From Ignavibacteriota bacterium (GTDB lineage Bacteria; Bacteroidota; Ignavibacteria; UBA10030), in the NCBI GenBank assembly GCA_963727825.1, contig CAVSHO010000011.1, positions 320,001 to 384,000 of the forward strand: a stretch of DNA of 64,000 nt, read 5' to 3'. The translations under genes and the position numbers were made by a program. The number at the start of each line of letters is the position of its first letter. Position 1 is the first letter of the stretch. Below, piece after piece: positions 56,824 through 61,811 of this stretch. The notes below the pieces were generated by a model. It worked only from the letters and a program-made list of their open reading frames with translations. It did no database searches and was not told where the DNA came from.

Positions 56824-57678
56824 TCATTGGCAAGCTTCCAATGCCCTGCGAACAAGGACAGCGATAACAGGCTCTTTATATTCAGTCGACCAGCGTCTTC
56901 CGGTAAAAGAGATCATTACTTCCGAAACCTCTTGCCCTGCTTTGGCGAACAACTTGCTTGTCGGCTTTTGTCCGATCAATAATTTTTCCGCTTCCGTCAT
57001 TCGCTGCCATTTTGGGAATGCCGCGCCAGGAACAATTCGCGCTTCTTGAATAAGTCCGCTGTCATTCTTCTGCAGGATTGCCGCAACGCTCAAACGAGAA
57101 ATCGCCAGCGCATTTCTTCTTCCAAGTTTGATGAATGCGCTTTTCATCGAGTCGAGTAATTTAGGAAATCGAATCTCGGTGAGGAGCTCATTCTTTGCTG
57201 CTATAGTCTGGTAAGGCTTAACGAAGAAATCGATAATGGGAACAATACGTTTTTCTTCACCCGATTGTAATTTTACAATTGCTCCAAGTGCCATTAATGG
57301 TGGAACAGTATCTGCACAAGCGGCAGCGTTCATAATATTTCCACCAATGGTGCCGCGATTGCGAATTTGCGGAGAACCGATTACATTCGCAGCTATATGC
57401 AACAATCGCGCAAACTTTTTAATGATTGGAGATGAACCTATCTCAGTGTGTGTTGCAAGTGGTTTGATAATAATTTCGGATTCAGTTTCGATAATTCCCT
57501 TTAGCTCGTTCAAACGACTTATGTCGATGATTGCTTTGGGAGATTTGACCGATGCCTTACGCAGTTCTATCAACACATCCGTACCGCCGGCAAGAATTTG
57601 CGCGTCAATATTATAAATCGCTAGCACTTCTAATGCTTCTTGAATAGATTTTGGCAATATAAATTCAAATGGTTTCAT
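56824..57678 (-). CDS. Xanthine dehydrogenase-family FAD-binding subunit
   Basis: ILAGGTD, IGSPQIRNRGTIGGN, KLGRRNALAIS. Confidence 0.93.
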   Translation of the reverse strand: MKPFEFILPKSIQEALEVLAIYNIDAQILAGGTDVLIELRKASVKSPKAIIDISRLNELKGIIETESEIIIKPLATHTEIGSSPIIKKFARLLHIAANVIGSPQIRNRGTIGGNIMNAAACADTVPPLMALGAIVKLQSGEEKRIVPIIDFFVKPYQTIAAKNELLTEIRFPKLLDSMKSAFIKLGRRNALAISRLSVAAILQKNDSGLIQEARIVPGAAFPKWQRMTEAEKLLIGQKPTSKLFAKAGQEVSEVMISFTGRRWSTEYKEPVIAVLVRRALEACQ

Positions 57679-58160
57679 ATTTTTCTTTGCGTGTCTTAGC
57701 GTTCTTTGCGGTTAGAATAAAACCGCGAAGACGCAAAGGTACGCCAAGTTATAAGTGATTTACAACTCTTCTAATTCCATTCTTAATCAAATTGACATTG
57801 AAATTTATCAAGAATCCGAGTTTACATCCTGATAATTTTAGATAAGTTAATATTTGTGCCATATGAGCATCATTCAATATCTCTACTGATTTTATTTCAA
57901 TGATTACCTTATTCTCAATAAGCAAATCAATCCTATAACCGCAATCAAGTTTGACTTCATTGTATACAACAGGTAATGCTTTTTGTGATTCAACATATAA
58001 TCCAGCATCAATTAATTCGAACTTTAAACATGCTTCATAAGTCGATTCGAGCAATCCGGGCACTAGCGCTTTATGTACGTTGAGTGCTCGATCAACAACA
58101 ATTTTCCCAATTTCATTTTCAGTCATATTTCTTCGCGTCGTTTTGCAAACTTTGCGGTTA
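57676..58160 (-). mobile_element. Putative repeat-bracketed GxxExxY insertion cassette
   Basis: Three related 28-29 nt arms: A 57685-57713, B 57721-57748 (inverted), C 58131-58159. A and C are direct repeats, each adjoining an ATG. Mobility is inferred. Confidence 0.5.
57749..58126 (-). CDS. GxxExxY protein (PD-(D/E)XK nuclease-like fold)
   Basis: VHKALVPGLLESTYEACL, YRIDLLIENKVIIEIKSV, AQILTYLK, GFLINFN. Confidence 0.93.
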   Translation of the reverse strand: MTENEIGKIVVDRALNVHKALVPGLLESTYEACLKFELIDAGLYVESQKALPVVYNEVKLDCGYRIDLLIENKVIIEIKSVEILNDAHMAQILTYLKLSGCKLGFLINFNVNLIKNGIRRVVNHL

Positions 58161-58199
58161 TATTTAAGATTTTATTTTGAATGAATCTATTCCTTGTAT

Positions 58200-60510
58200 T
58201 TACTTTTCTTCCGAACCGCGTTTTCCGGTGCGAGTGAGTTTATGACCGAGCAGCACTCGTTCAAGGTTTGCAGGAATTTCGTATAAGCGTTTTCCAGTTG
58301 CGTTGTAAATCGCATTTACAATCGCCGGGGCTGCTATTTCATTGGTCGGCTCGCCGACCGATTTTGCTCCAAACGGTCCAGTGGAATCTTCATTCTCTAC
58401 TATAATTGCCTTGATGCGCGGCACATCCGTAGAAGTCGGAATTAAATATTCGTCAAAGTTGACCTGTTTTGGAATGCCGTCCTCGATTTCAAACTCTTCC
58501 AGTAAGCCATAACCAATCCCCATCGCTACACCACCGTAAATCTGTGCTTCTACCATTCCTTTGTTGATCGCCTTGCCAACATCGTGCACAGAAACAAAAT
58601 CGAGAACATCAACTTTGCCTGTTTCGATATCAACTTCGATTTCTGCAACATTGGCGCCATACACAAATGTAAAATATGCATCACCTTGTCCCTGCTTTTC
58701 ATCCCAAGAAGTCTTTGGCGAATGATGCCACCCAAGTCCGGTCATAGGCTTACCTTTGTTAAAGCATGCGGTTGCAAGCTCATTGAATGATGCCAGACCG
58801 CTCTTTTGTTTTTATATTGATGAGATAGTTGTCGAGAAGATCTAGATCGCTCACTGCAGCGTTTATTATTTCTGCACCGATTTCGAGCAACGTAGCACGC
58901 ACTTTTTCTGCAGCATTCTTCGCCGCTGAGCCGCCCATAATTGTTCCGCGCGATGCGACTGTTGCACCGGAATCTGCAACACGACTTGTATTTGTATTCA
59001 GAAATTGAATCCGGTCCATAGAAATACCAAGCACCTCAGCGGTAATTTGCGACATTTGCGTTTGTGCGCCTTGTCCCATATCTGTGATCCCTGAAGAGAC
59101 GATTACGCTGCCGTCTGTTTGCACGGAGACGACGGTTTCTGCCGCATCTGTTCCCTCTGCGCCAAGTGAAACCCCGCGATAGCTGCATGCAAGCCCAATT
59201 CCGCGTTGCTTTTCGTTAGTCGTTGTTTTACGATTACTTTTCCATTTTTTCTCGAAGTCACTTGCATCGACTGCTTTCGTCAATACTTCTTTCAGACTAA
59301 CATTGTGCGTTAGTTTTTGTCCTGTCGCAGTTGCCGCCCCGGATTCGAATCCATTCTTCATCCGAATCTCAATCGGATTCATTCCAACTTTTTCTGCCAA
59401 CTCATCCATCATCGATTCAATGGCAAAATTGATTTGCGGCGACCCAAATCCACGCATCGCTCCAGTGTAATTATTGTTCGTGTATGCCGCATAGACATCC
59501 GTCTTGATATTCTCACAATAGTAAGGCCCTGTTGCCTGCACAACGGACCGCCACGTAACGAATTGACTCATCGATGCATAAGCACCGCCATCAGCGATGC
59601 ATTTGATCTCCATTGCAGTGATCGAGCCGTCTTTCTTTGCGCCCCACTTATAATAGAGTACATACGGATGACGCTTGTAACTTTCTAGCATCGACTCTTC
59701 GCGCGTGTTAACCATTTTCACCGGTTTGCCGGTTTTTAGCGCAAGCAATGCAGCTCGGCAGCTGATCAATGTCATGGCTTCGTCTTTGCCGCCGAATGAA
59801 CCACCAATTGTTGACTGCACAATTTGCACTTGCGCAAGATCAAGATTCAGCATCGATGCAACTGAGCGACGAGTTGAAAAAAGATTCTGTACACAACCCG
59901 TGACTTTTATTCCGCCTTGTTCTGATGGTTCAGCAAGCACAGCTTCAGGTTCGATGTACGAATGCTCGATGAATTGAGTTTTAAATTTCCGTTCGATGAT
60001 AAAATCAGCTTCAGCAAAACCTTTCGTGACATCGCCCTTTTGAACGTGATGATGCACAAACTCATTTTTATCGTCATGAAGAACCGGTACACCCGGTTTC
60101 ATCGCTTCTTCCGGATCGCTTACGATGGGAAGCGGCTCGTATTCGACTTCGATCAGTGAGATCGCTTGTTCAGCAATTTCCTTCGATACAGCAGCAACAA
60201 TTGCAACACCATCTCCAAGATAGCGGACACGATCTTCCGCAAGAATGGCTTGATTCTTTACAACAACACCGAACACTTTCGCACCGGGGATATCCTTCGC
60301 AGTCAGCACTGCCTCAACACCCGTAAGTTTTTCTGCTTTCGAAATATCAATACGAATAATTTTAGCATGAGGATATTTCGAGCGTAGCACTTTACCAATT
60401 AATTGGTGCGTCACGTTATAATCGTCGGCATACTTCGCTTTTCCAGTGACCTTGCCCCACGCATCCACACGCCGTTCTGACTTGCCGATTATTTTCAATT
60501 CTTTGTTCAT
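58200..60510 (-). pseudogene. Xanthine dehydrogenase-family molybdopterin subunit, split by a +1 frameshift near 58780-58811
   Basis: KVTGKAKY, IGGSFGGK, AMRGFGSPQ, DMGQG and TVASR in part 1; DVGKAIN, QIYGG and GPFGAKSVGE in part 2; about 769 aa if joined. May be an assembly error. Confidence 0.85.
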
Positions 60511-60512
60511 TT

Positions 60513-61811
60513 TTACTTGTTTATTTTCTTCCACAACCTTGCAGCAACTTTCTGTGCTTTTTCCATTACTGCATTTTCATCAATTTCTACGAGCTGGCGG
60601 TTCCATACAATCCAATTACCATCGATCATCACATGCTGAACCATCGAGGAGCTCATTCCAAACAAAAAATGACCGAGAATATTTTGGCGAATAATTGGGG
60701 TCGGAGAATTGTAATCGATTACAACAAGATCCGCTGGTGAATTCTTTACAAGCATTCCAAACGAACGGCCGAAGAATTGCGAGATAAGTTTCTGCCCGTT
60801 GTTTAGCATTCTCGGTAGTCGAAAGAACTCTGCCCGATGATTAGATTCAGCATTACGGAAATAACCGAATCTTGCTTCATCAAACATATCTGCCGGAAAG
60901 CCGTCCGTGCCAAGAGCAGAATGTTCTCCATACCAATTCAAGGGCGCATAACCAACGGCATTGTTCATATTAGAACGCGGATTGTGGACTATCCACGTAC
61001 CGGCTTTTTCGATTCTGTCAAATTGTTCTTGATTTAGATGAACACCGTGGGCAAAGATAGATTTCTTTCGGAGAACACCAAGTTCAGCCAACCGGTTGAT
61101 GATATCAGTATTGTAGTTTTCCATCGAATCCAATACATCAGCTTTATCTTCAGCGATATGAATGTGAACACCACAATCATACATCGATGCCAGTTCTCCA
61201 ATTTTGCGCAATGAATCATTGCATAGTGTGAAAGATGCATGCGCACCGATTGTGCCTCGGAAACGAGCATTATTTGCATTTTCTATAACAAAGCGTTCAT
61301 TCTCTTCCAATCCAAGATCGCGCTTTTTCATTCCACCGCGATCGGTGACTTCGTAGCAAAGGACTCCGCGCAGACCAACCTTCGCCATACCGGCTTTTAT
61401 CAAGTCAAGCGAACCTCGAATATAATTCGGCGATGCGTGGTGATCAATGAGCGTCGTCGTTCCAAACTTGACAGCCTCGATTGCACCAATAAGCGCACTA
61501 TAATAGATGGATTCTTCATCCAGCGCTTCATCCAACTTCCACCACACTTTTTGAAGAATCTCAATGAAGTTCATTGGCGCTTTCTTCGGCGAGGGCATTC
61601 CGCGGGAAAGTGTAGAATAAAGATGCGTATGCGAATTTACTAATCCGGGAAGAATATATTTTCCAGAAAGATCAATAACTTCATCACTCTTCTTTGGTCG
61701 TAGATTCTTCCCGCAATCAGCAATTATACTATCGATGATGCGTATATCGGCTTCGTCGATCTTTGGCGGATCGAGATTAATAATTTCGGCATTCTTTAGG
61801 AGGAAACCCAT
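60513..61811 (-). CDS. ssnA: SsnA-family amidohydrolase
   Basis: NSHTHLYS.L.RGM, WWKLD, TTLIDHHASP, GAHASFT, HIHIAE, HNPRSNMNNAVG, LGTDG. Confidence 0.85.
   Translation of the reverse strand: MGFLLKNAEIINLDPPKIDEADIRIIDSIIADCGKNLRPKKSDEVIDLSGKYILPGLVNSHTHLYSTLSRGMPSPKKAPMNFIEILQKVWWKLDEALDEESIYYSALIGAIEAVKFGTTTLIDHHASPNYIRGSLDLIKAGMAKVGLRGVLCYEVTDRGGMKKRDLGLEENERFVIENANNARFRGTIGAHASFTLCNDSLRKIGELASMYDCGVHIHIAEDKADVLDSMENYNTDIINRLAELGVLRKKSIFAHGVHLNQEQFDRIEKAGTWIVHNPRSNMNNAVGYAPLNWYGEHSALGTDGFPADMFDEARFGYFRNAESNHRAEFFRLPRMLNNGQKLISQFFGRSFGMLVKNSPADLVVIDYNSPTPIIRQNILGHFLFGMSSSMVQHVMIDGNWIVWNRQLVEIDENAVMEKAQKVAARLWKKINK

Follow-up and report, generated by a model that had tools for sequence, protein, structure and literature searches.

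A GxxExxY gene between inverted arrays of a seven-nucleotide word in an xdh-type operon: a putative insertable DNA cassette

A small open reading frame (ORF) between terminal inverted repeats is the plan of the intervening sequences (IVSs) of 23S rRNA, which are cut by RNase III and are regarded as selfish elements whose origin and mobility mechanism are open (PMC4990558). IVSs with an ORF for the S23p, or four-helix-bundle, protein occur in Leptospira and Coxiella, and the same source takes their sporadic distribution to suggest horizontal transfer. The family of this protein, PF05635, is also that of the retroelement accessory protein Avd (PMC10053308). Another protein family, PF13366, was listed with the function 'Unknown' and the remark 'multiple transfers' in a 2012 superfamily survey (PMC3424549). 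We describe here a PF13366 gene, of the type named GxxExxY, in a stretch of 64,000 nucleotides (nt) from an Ignavibacteriota bacterium (GenBank assembly GCA_963727825.1, contig CAVSHO010000011.1, positions 320,001 to 384,000); this whole stretch is called the window below. The gene lies between two genes of a host operon and is bracketed by arms made of a repeated 7-nt word. We interpret positions 57679-58159 of the window as belonging to a family of small DNA cassettes able to insert themselves or be inserted, the arms of which are word sites probably read by the cassette's own nuclease for copying or moving, and we put the probability of this interpretation at about 0.55.

The likeness to the 23S IVS is that of a small ORF within terminal inverted repeats, inserted in a highly transcribed host region and sporadically distributed. 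The IVS, however, sits in rRNA helix 25 or 45, carries the S23p four-helix-bundle ORF and has a near-perfect 28-bp stem (PMC4990558), whereas the cassette occupies a spacer between protein-coding genes, encodes a protein of the PD-(D/E)XK type, has arms that are arrays of a 7-nt word, and gave no RNA signature in our analysis. Since neither the rRNA site nor the S23p ORF is found here, the cassette is not a member of the IVS class, although the plan is shared. The terminal inverted repeats themselves are present (58127-58159 and 57721-57748), with pairing that is weak in this copy and strong across the family. GxxExxY cassettes are apparently a widespread, undescribed family built like the rRNA intervening sequences; no description of them was found in the literature searched, subscription journals and the NCBIfam family text being outside its reach.

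All parts of the cassette are on the minus strand. The upstream arm (58127-58159, 33 nt), which marks the left end of the element, starts with AACC, contains the words CGCAAAG, TGCAAAA (degraded) and CGCGAAG, and passes through an A-rich leader directly into the ATG (58126-58124) of the GxxExxY ORF (57749-58126; 125 amino acids (aa), TAA stop). Directly 3' of the TAA comes an inverted arm of 28 nt (57721-57748), with three words in reverse complement and GGTT at its end. An AT-rich loop of 7 nt (57714-57720) separates this GGTT from the AACC that opens a third, downstream arm (57679-57713; words CGCAAAG, CGCTAAG and CGCAAAG), whose A-rich leader runs into the ATG (57678-57676) of the gene for the flavin adenine dinucleotide (FAD)-binding subunit. 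A preliminary description of this DNA had reported a GxxExxY gene with three arms, two of them abutting start codons, three CGCAAAG-type words in each arm, and direct arms identical at 21 of 29 core positions. The sequence is as claimed: an independent position-by-position count gave the same 21 of 29, and the words are of the CGCNAAG type, the middle upstream word being the degraded one. A repeat search returned the upstream and downstream arms as a direct repeat of 43 nt with 72% identity (58125-58167 against 57679-57721). Since the third arm repeats the upstream arm, and since the empty spacers of relatives hold a different, G-rich leader, we assign this arm to the insert: it would be inserted DNA, not ancestral spacer, and would have replaced the original FAD leader.

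Eight intact words and one degraded word stand within about 100 nt at the locus, against 0.043 per 60 nt for the word pattern genome-wide, and the ORF has a G+C content of 31%, whereas that of the genome is 41%. A search of the genome for further copies of the arms, with as many as 8 mismatches allowed, gave a single match, which is at chance level. A loose scan for word clusters over the 3.1 Mb genome gave nine matches including this locus, the other eight being without the inverted-arm layout, and a generic hairpin scan (score at least 20) gave one hairpin, which is unrelated. Solo arms elsewhere in the genome, for which the preliminary description had suggested a count, were thus absent by both the arm and the word-cluster scans. 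The genome has two GxxExxY genes only. Between 56000 and 60000, Rfam models found no rRNA and only two sub-threshold matches far under their gathering scores (to miRNA and snoRNA models), and a promoter and terminator scan gave counts no different from those of shuffled sequences. Logan contigs of four DNA runs, at a depth of 2-5, bridge 57571-57782 (from the FAD start through the hairpin to the end of the ORF) and 57755-58158 (from the ORF to the upstream arm), with no joints and no variant letters in the covered parts.

The protein is a clear family member. It matches PF13366 (PDDEXK_3; E 3.6e-39, 134.2 bits for a cut-off of 22, residues 5-121), the only Pfam family to do so, and TIGR04256 (GxxExxY; E 1.1e-40, 138.6 bits for a cut-off of 35, residues 7-122), so that the curated cut-offs of both models are exceeded over the full length. 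The name motif is present as G24-x-x-E27-x-x-Y30. Among 44 aligned relatives, G24, E27, Y30, D67, K79, Q91, Y95, N108 and F109 are invariant and E77 is kept in at least 90%; in an AlphaFold2 model (mean predicted local distance difference test score 95) the catalytic-type residues D67, E77 and K79 lie on strands 65-70 and 74-79. The top structural matches all have the PD-(D/E)XK fold: the nuclease domain of BpuSI (Z 8.4), Cas4 SSO0001 (Z 8.3), then BglII, Hjc and HsdR, while Foldseek ranked Cas4 first (ranks 1-2). As the Z values are middling, they support a restriction-endonuclease-like fold and no particular subfamily. The likeness to Cas4 and RecB-type nucleases (4ic1 and 4r5q) is one of fold (Z 8.3 and 7.1) and of the D...ExK active site, but the GxxExxY protein is half their size and has neither the conserved four-cysteine cluster nor a CRISPR context. 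Hidden Markov models (HMMs) of Cas4 match it weakly (E 3e-4), and a PDB sequence search gave nothing at E values up to 1. Between the window's copy and that of genome G005, the ratio of nonsynonymous to synonymous substitutions (dN/dS) is 0.07 at a dS of 0.40, as expected for a protein under purifying selection. According to the model, the protein would be a minimal nuclease of the PD-(D/E)XK fold, which looks functional. One residue stands out: V22 (58061-58063), two residues ahead of the GxxExxY motif, replaces a glycine found in at least 90% of the 44 relatives, including the 94%-identical G005 copy (LGPG to LVPG).

Arms are a property of the family. Flank complementarity was scored as the strongest local match between two flanks of 120 nt, one preceding the start codon of a gene and one following its stop codon, with 1500 ORFs of the window's genome as controls. 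The 99th control percentile was exceeded at 28 of 49 GxxExxY loci of the order and at 43 of 78 loci of a named genome collection. When 120 loci were classified by their words, 36 were two-armed, 4 were three-armed like the window's and 7 had hairpins on both sides, while 42 were without the CRCNRAG word family, mostly with other words. The three-arm layout is therefore a minority form. At least two C-R-C-N-R-A-G words were present in a flank at 85 of 108 loci of protein clade A, against none of the 14 loci of clades B and C, which have other words. Word type follows the protein clade, although the p-value is overstated because related genomes are not independent. The window's genome itself holds an example. 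Its second GxxExxY gene (C7:166381-166722, locus L002; 32% aa identity over 116 aligned residues) has arms quite unlike those of the window's copy, with GTCTGAACC...GGTTCAGAC at the ends and GATTAAAGG / AATCATG-type words. Here the order is arm, arm-loop-arm', ORF, arm', and the gene that follows has its ATG immediately after the last arm. The inverted ends (T)AACCRC...GYGGTT(A) recur across loci.

The spacer between the genes for the molybdenum (Mo)-cofactor subunit and the FAD subunit was then compared among related operons. A search of 277 genomes of the order with the FAD subunit located the operon in 59, and the spacer was read in 50 (the other nine operon genomes are G159, G063, G158, G212, G191, G192, G195, G197 and G198; the window's genome is G000 in this numbering). 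In 42 of the 50, the spacer is short and arm-free, with only the 14-residue tail of the Mo gene and a short G-rich leader. The cassette is present in two, G000 and G007 (78% aa identity), and ORF-less hairpins or arm remnants in five (G014, G025, G074 and G081 with CGCAAAG-type words, G018 with other words). The last spacer, that of G043 (locus L082, about 695-900), holds a different small ORF, HicB-type antitoxin-like by eye, followed by a short remnant, so small selfish genes of more than one kind seem to settle in the Mo-FAD spacer. Searching with the protein showed this site to be filled in two more genomes, G005 (94% aa identity) and G138 (82%, another genus). In G007 and G138 the ORF has on each side a complete hairpin made of an inverted arm, a loop and a direct arm, while the window copy and that of G005 are without the upstream inverted arm. 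The gene is thus no fixed member of the operon.

The distribution of filled and empty spacers records more than one event. A tree of three concatenated operon proteins (624 aa) has the form (outgroups,(G007,(G014,(G000,(G006,(G011,G013)))))), with 98% support for the G007 split and a weak G014 node. Because G007, G014 and G000 stand beside an empty clade (G006, G011 and G013), at least two gains or losses are needed, either a single entry with a later clean removal in the empty clade or several entries. In a quick tree of Mo C-termini with weak inner support, G138 falls outside the genus, beside the empty G126; taken with the other placements, this implies that the spacer was occupied or vacated several times. 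A tree of the cassette proteins unites the copies of the xdh site in a single group of weak support, but this group also includes a copy that lies elsewhere (G022), a result that would be compatible with common descent as well as with site preference. The preliminary description had expected that recombination between the direct arms would delete the gene cleanly and leave an intact operon. Such a deletion was not seen: the sole ORF-less allele of this insertion, in G014 (L006), retains five bases from the start of the upstream arm, a short trace of the ORF end, the inverted arm, the loop and the downstream arm, and since the inverted arm is retained it is a plain deletion derivative of the three-arm form. 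In G005 (L050, 1-2843) the whole Mo gene is gone and the amidohydrolase gene is followed immediately by an intact cassette. The match to the window starts precisely with the AACCGC of the arm, which is the end of the Mo-gene deletion, in what looks like the pattern of an end-anchored adjacent deletion. Of the G005 FAD gene about 36 codons are left, which seem to have been joined to the end of the gene for the 2Fe-2S subunit, so that the host operon is wrecked and the cassette gene intact.

The same cassettes are found at other sites. Relatives 75-81% identical to the window's lie after a histidine kinase gene (G121) and between glycosyltransferase genes (G149, G151 and G153; the G153 copy has an internal stop and is a pseudogene) and in two further contexts (G022 and G069), while more distant members fill the spacer between atpD and atpC in G244 and the one ahead of cysS in G238. 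In genome G029, two copies (L020 on C20 and L199 on C6) share 608 nt at 95.9% identity although their flanks are unrelated. The shared stretch starts within an upstream inverted arm and stops where the following gene begins with its ATG (ATGAAA in both). We regard this pair as the most direct sign of what appears to be recent copying. In front of the C6 copy lie roughly 12 nt from the end of another ORF and one complete inverted arm, an arrangement like that of a tandem insertion or of one longer than a single unit. Across 41 related genomes, the copy number ranges from 0 to 13, with many fragments. Moreover, relatives 70-79% identical in the named genome collection have labels such as Bacteroidota, Bacteroidales, Balneolaceae, Ignavibacteriales, Cloacimonadia and an anammox planctomycete, and their flanks carry the same word family. 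Such identity of a 125-aa protein across phyla, together with the same words, points to horizontal transfer of the gene with its arms. As for vehicles, a phage collection and PHROGs gave no match, and 8 of 72,556 plasmid records matched, all below 60% identity and non-mobilizable. Some genomes also have hairpins of the strict pattern in excess of clade-A genes (9 against 3 in G114, 8 against 1 in G040). In G040, identical ORF-less hairpins CTTTGTGGTT-loop-AACCACAAAG lie at C1:440086, 446050 and 451994, C2:797368 and 803427, and C5:563934, at steps of about 6 kb, as though each belonged to one unit of a tandem repeat, for example of rRNA operons.

We then asked whether the arms are kept as DNA or as RNA. 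An IVS-like element would act in the operon transcript: the double-stranded RNA of the arms would be cut by RNase III, releasing the mRNA of the ORF while the host messages keep protective stems, and the third arm would tune FAD translation. The layout is indeed that of the 23S IVS (PMC4990558), the genome's own PF05635 genes carry such arms, the arms abut start codons, and the inverted and downstream arms form a stable local hairpin (-26.4 kcal/mol, z -5.6, none of 200 shuffles as good). The preliminary description had likewise proposed an RNA switch, in which the inverted arm pairs either with the downstream arm, occluding the next start, or with the upstream arm, looping out the ORF. The first pairing holds, but not the occlusion: the stem of the minimum-energy fold ends 6 nt before the FAD AUG and leaves the AUG and the six bases before it free. 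As for the second, the complementarity is there, at the 95th control percentile only, but a fold of 506 nt prefers the local hairpin, which persists, and pairs the upstream arm inside the ORF. An RNA stem should also leave its mark on the mismatches. At 78 loci, however, G:U-type mismatches number 142 in the sense strand and 131 in the antisense strand (p 0.55), with transversions the commonest class (380), and the first locus set gave the same absence of a G:U excess over A:C (72 against 79). Among six orthologous xdh-site hairpins, none of 20 pairs is compensatory and the covariation term is unfavourable. In addition, word order differs between the paired arms, which implies register slips in a helix. 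The RNA switch is thus not supported, and the RNase III scheme appears unlikely.

What is conserved is the word. Among the single-base variants of CGCAAAG in 74 arms, changes are almost absent at positions 1, 3, 6 and 7 and take the form of transitions at positions 2 and 5, and position 4 accepts any base; the modal spacing of the words is 9 nt. The arms diverge less than synonymous sites in all five usable close pairs, for example 0.17-0.21 per site against a synonymous difference (pS) of 0.76 between G007 and G138, and 0.15-0.18 against 0.31 between G000 and G005 (the pair L054/L057 was excluded because of misassigned ORF starts and misaligned frames). Position-specific constraint combined with unlike word order is expected of arrays of a protein-recognition word and not of a helix. 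The arms would therefore be kept by selection as DNA words, that is, as putative protein-binding sites, and not as an RNA stem.

Two further explanations leave out a mobile role for the nuclease. The hairpins could be of the type of repetitive extragenic palindromes (REPs) or miniature inverted-repeat transposable elements, moved in trans, for instance by REP-associated tyrosine transposases (RAYTs), with GxxExxY and four-helix-bundle genes merely carried or trapped. That two unrelated protein families have the same layout, that ORF-less hairpins outnumber the genes in G114 and G040, and that RAYT-like genes with hairpins of their own are present in the window's genome would all be accounted for in this way. 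Yet the RAYT hairpins are unrelated in sequence to the arms, the word type tracks the protein clade and not the host, down to two word families within the window's genome and the same words with relatives in other phyla, and the arms lie within a few bases of start and stop codons, unlike those of trapped cargo, all of which makes passive carriage rather improbable. Alternatively, the cassette could be immobile and its nuclease domesticated for repair, defence or RNA turnover, the words being operators for the translation of its own and the next gene. Strong purifying selection on the protein in spite of a destroyed host operon in G005, words at the position of a ribosome-binding site, arms more conserved than synonymous sites and only two copies in the window's genome are what such a gene would show. 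A domesticated gene would not be expected to be as patchy as this one among the 41 relatives, with its many fragments and pseudogenes, nor to have recent intragenomic copies and cross-phylum relatives; its neighbour genes are never the same, and PADLOC found no defence system beyond the weak Cas4 likeness. We hold domestication to be improbable as well.

Altogether, the cassette is an inserted, horizontally shared and occasionally copied unit of ORF and arms, insertable and probably selfish. Indeed, a selfish cassette had been suggested in the preliminary description, with the expectation of arms enriched beside GxxExxY genes, a gene that is not fixed in the operon and empty xdh sites, and all three were found. 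That description also called the cassette transposase-free, which is an assumption; the GxxExxY nuclease itself may be the mobility enzyme. We propose the following scenario. The element, which would end in AACC...GGTT with the nuclease gene tightly bracketed by inverted C-R-C-N-R-A-G arrays in steps of about 9 nt, would have inserted into the short Mo-FAD spacer in an ancestor within the genus. Its gene would be transcribed from the host operon, and the nuclease would recognise and cut the arm arrays or their hairpin. Cutting at the arms could lead to the cassette being copied or moved into other transcribed spacers. The third arm with its A-rich leader would now serve as the leader of the FAD gene. 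The window copy itself would be an old one with some decay, as judged from the degraded word, the valine at the conserved glycine and the failing host operon.

Several observations weigh against this proposal. Both mobility and nuclease activity are here inferred from sequence. No consistent target-site duplication was seen by eye at the junctions, including those of the G029 pair. The window's genome gives no sign of current activity, the words being nowhere else and GxxExxY copies numbering two. The across-ORF complementarity of the window's own copy is weak (score 10.0, at the 95th control percentile), which we attribute to the degraded word in the middle of its upstream arm. A translational role is possible, given the likeness of the word arrays to purine-rich leaders that bind ribosomes, and the link between word and clade could partly reflect common descent. 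The within-genus data also fit one old insertion followed by losses. Finally, the unrelated PF05635 family stands within like arms, which means that the GxxExxY nuclease need not be the mobility enzyme. The window's genome has six such PF05635 genes, of the 23S-IVS four-helix-bundle type (L043-L048, among them C5:10361-10744, C1:151171-151524 and C9:172364-172720); inverted word-array arms, with other words, are seen by eye at four or five of the six, and a blind scan of 12,186 ORFs recovers three of these genes with arms. The C5 gene fills the spacer before cysS, and in G238 the same spacer, after the same upstream gene end, holds a GxxExxY cassette; two cassette families thus use one site.

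Three other classes of element invite comparison with the cassette. With REPs, REPINs and RAYTs (PMC2817692, PMC3116915 and PMC3337134) it shares a small gene between inverted palindromes, an intergenic position and gene-less hairpins in some genomes. The enzyme there is an HUH Y1 transposase, whereas the cassette encodes a PD-(D/E)XK protein and its arms are tandem word arrays abutting start and stop codons; moreover, GxxExxY genes are multi-copy, patchy and cross-phylum, and the window's genome has no solo word copies. The blind scan of that genome also found three RAYT-like genes (IS200-type HUH) with palindromes of their own, at C10:250144-250698, C9:119928-120506 and C7:111474-112031, which were named by eye from their sequences and not by HMM.

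Integron cassettes are promoter-less small ORFs followed by an imperfect hairpin and expressed from an outside promoter, and the hairpin-ORF-hairpin arrays of G007, G138 and G029 are reminiscent of them. But the hairpin ends GGTT-loop-AACC appear unlike attC core sites, and the GxxExxY cassettes are single copies inside housekeeping operons, with word-array arms and no surrounding array; no integrase or attI is seen nearby, although no search aimed at an integrase was made. The window's genome also has a run of small ORFs with GCCTAAC...GTTAGGC-type hairpins resembling integron attC sites (C11:2271-4469 and C12:73069-73680), and these hairpins, like those of the RAYT-like genes, are unrelated in sequence to the cassette arms. 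Free-standing homing endonuclease genes resemble the cassette in being small nuclease genes at a precise site with empty alleles in close relatives. The cassette even shows something like the homing cycle of invasion, decay and loss, with the same spacer reoccupied in separate clades, a pseudogene in G153 and ORF loss in G014. In contrast to homing genes, one protein clade occupies different sites, and the flanking inverted word arrays have no known counterpart in homing genes.

A bolder proposal, which we offer only tentatively and consider doubtful, is that the cassettes represent a new autonomous class of mobile DNA, in which a Cas4-like nuclease reads a 7-nt word code and copies itself, together with the downstream leader, into housekeeping spacers, the four-helix-bundle cassettes, including the 23S IVS, being a sister class. 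If this were true, it would explain the origin of the rRNA IVSs, a question open since the early 1990s (PMC4990558), and would assign a role to two orphan protein families of very large size. GxxExxY (PF13366) and S23p/Avd-like (PF05635) proteins are very common small proteins to which no function has been assigned except in retroelements, and the shared arm type links both to a single kind of element. The origin and mobility of the 23S IVS could be tested on operon-borne cassettes, of which there are many alleles in the filled, empty or decayed state, and cultured carriers, Flavobacterium zepuense and a Dysgonomonas isolate among them. As they replace the leader of the next gene in housekeeping operons, they may change host expression and mislead annotation. 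If the nuclease does read the 7-nt word, it would be a very small sequence-directed nuclease with natural specificity variants.

The host genes are on the same strand as the cassette. Downstream lies the FAD-binding subunit gene (56824-57678; PF00941 and PF03450), and upstream the Mo-cofactor subunit gene (58200-60534), split into ORFs 58780-60534 and 58200-58745. The operon neighbours are the genes for the Mo-cofactor, FAD and 2Fe-2S subunits, and around them are amidohydrolase, permease and dihydropyrimidine-dehydrogenase-like genes; the cluster is one of xanthine-dehydrogenase-type purine catabolism. Contrary to what the preliminary description implied, the operon is not intact: the Mo gene has a +1 frameshift near 58800 (58745-58811) and an early stop, 14 codons short of its relatives, which reflect either a decaying operon or an assembly error. 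The lost 14-codon tail of the Mo gene remains readable past the premature stop.

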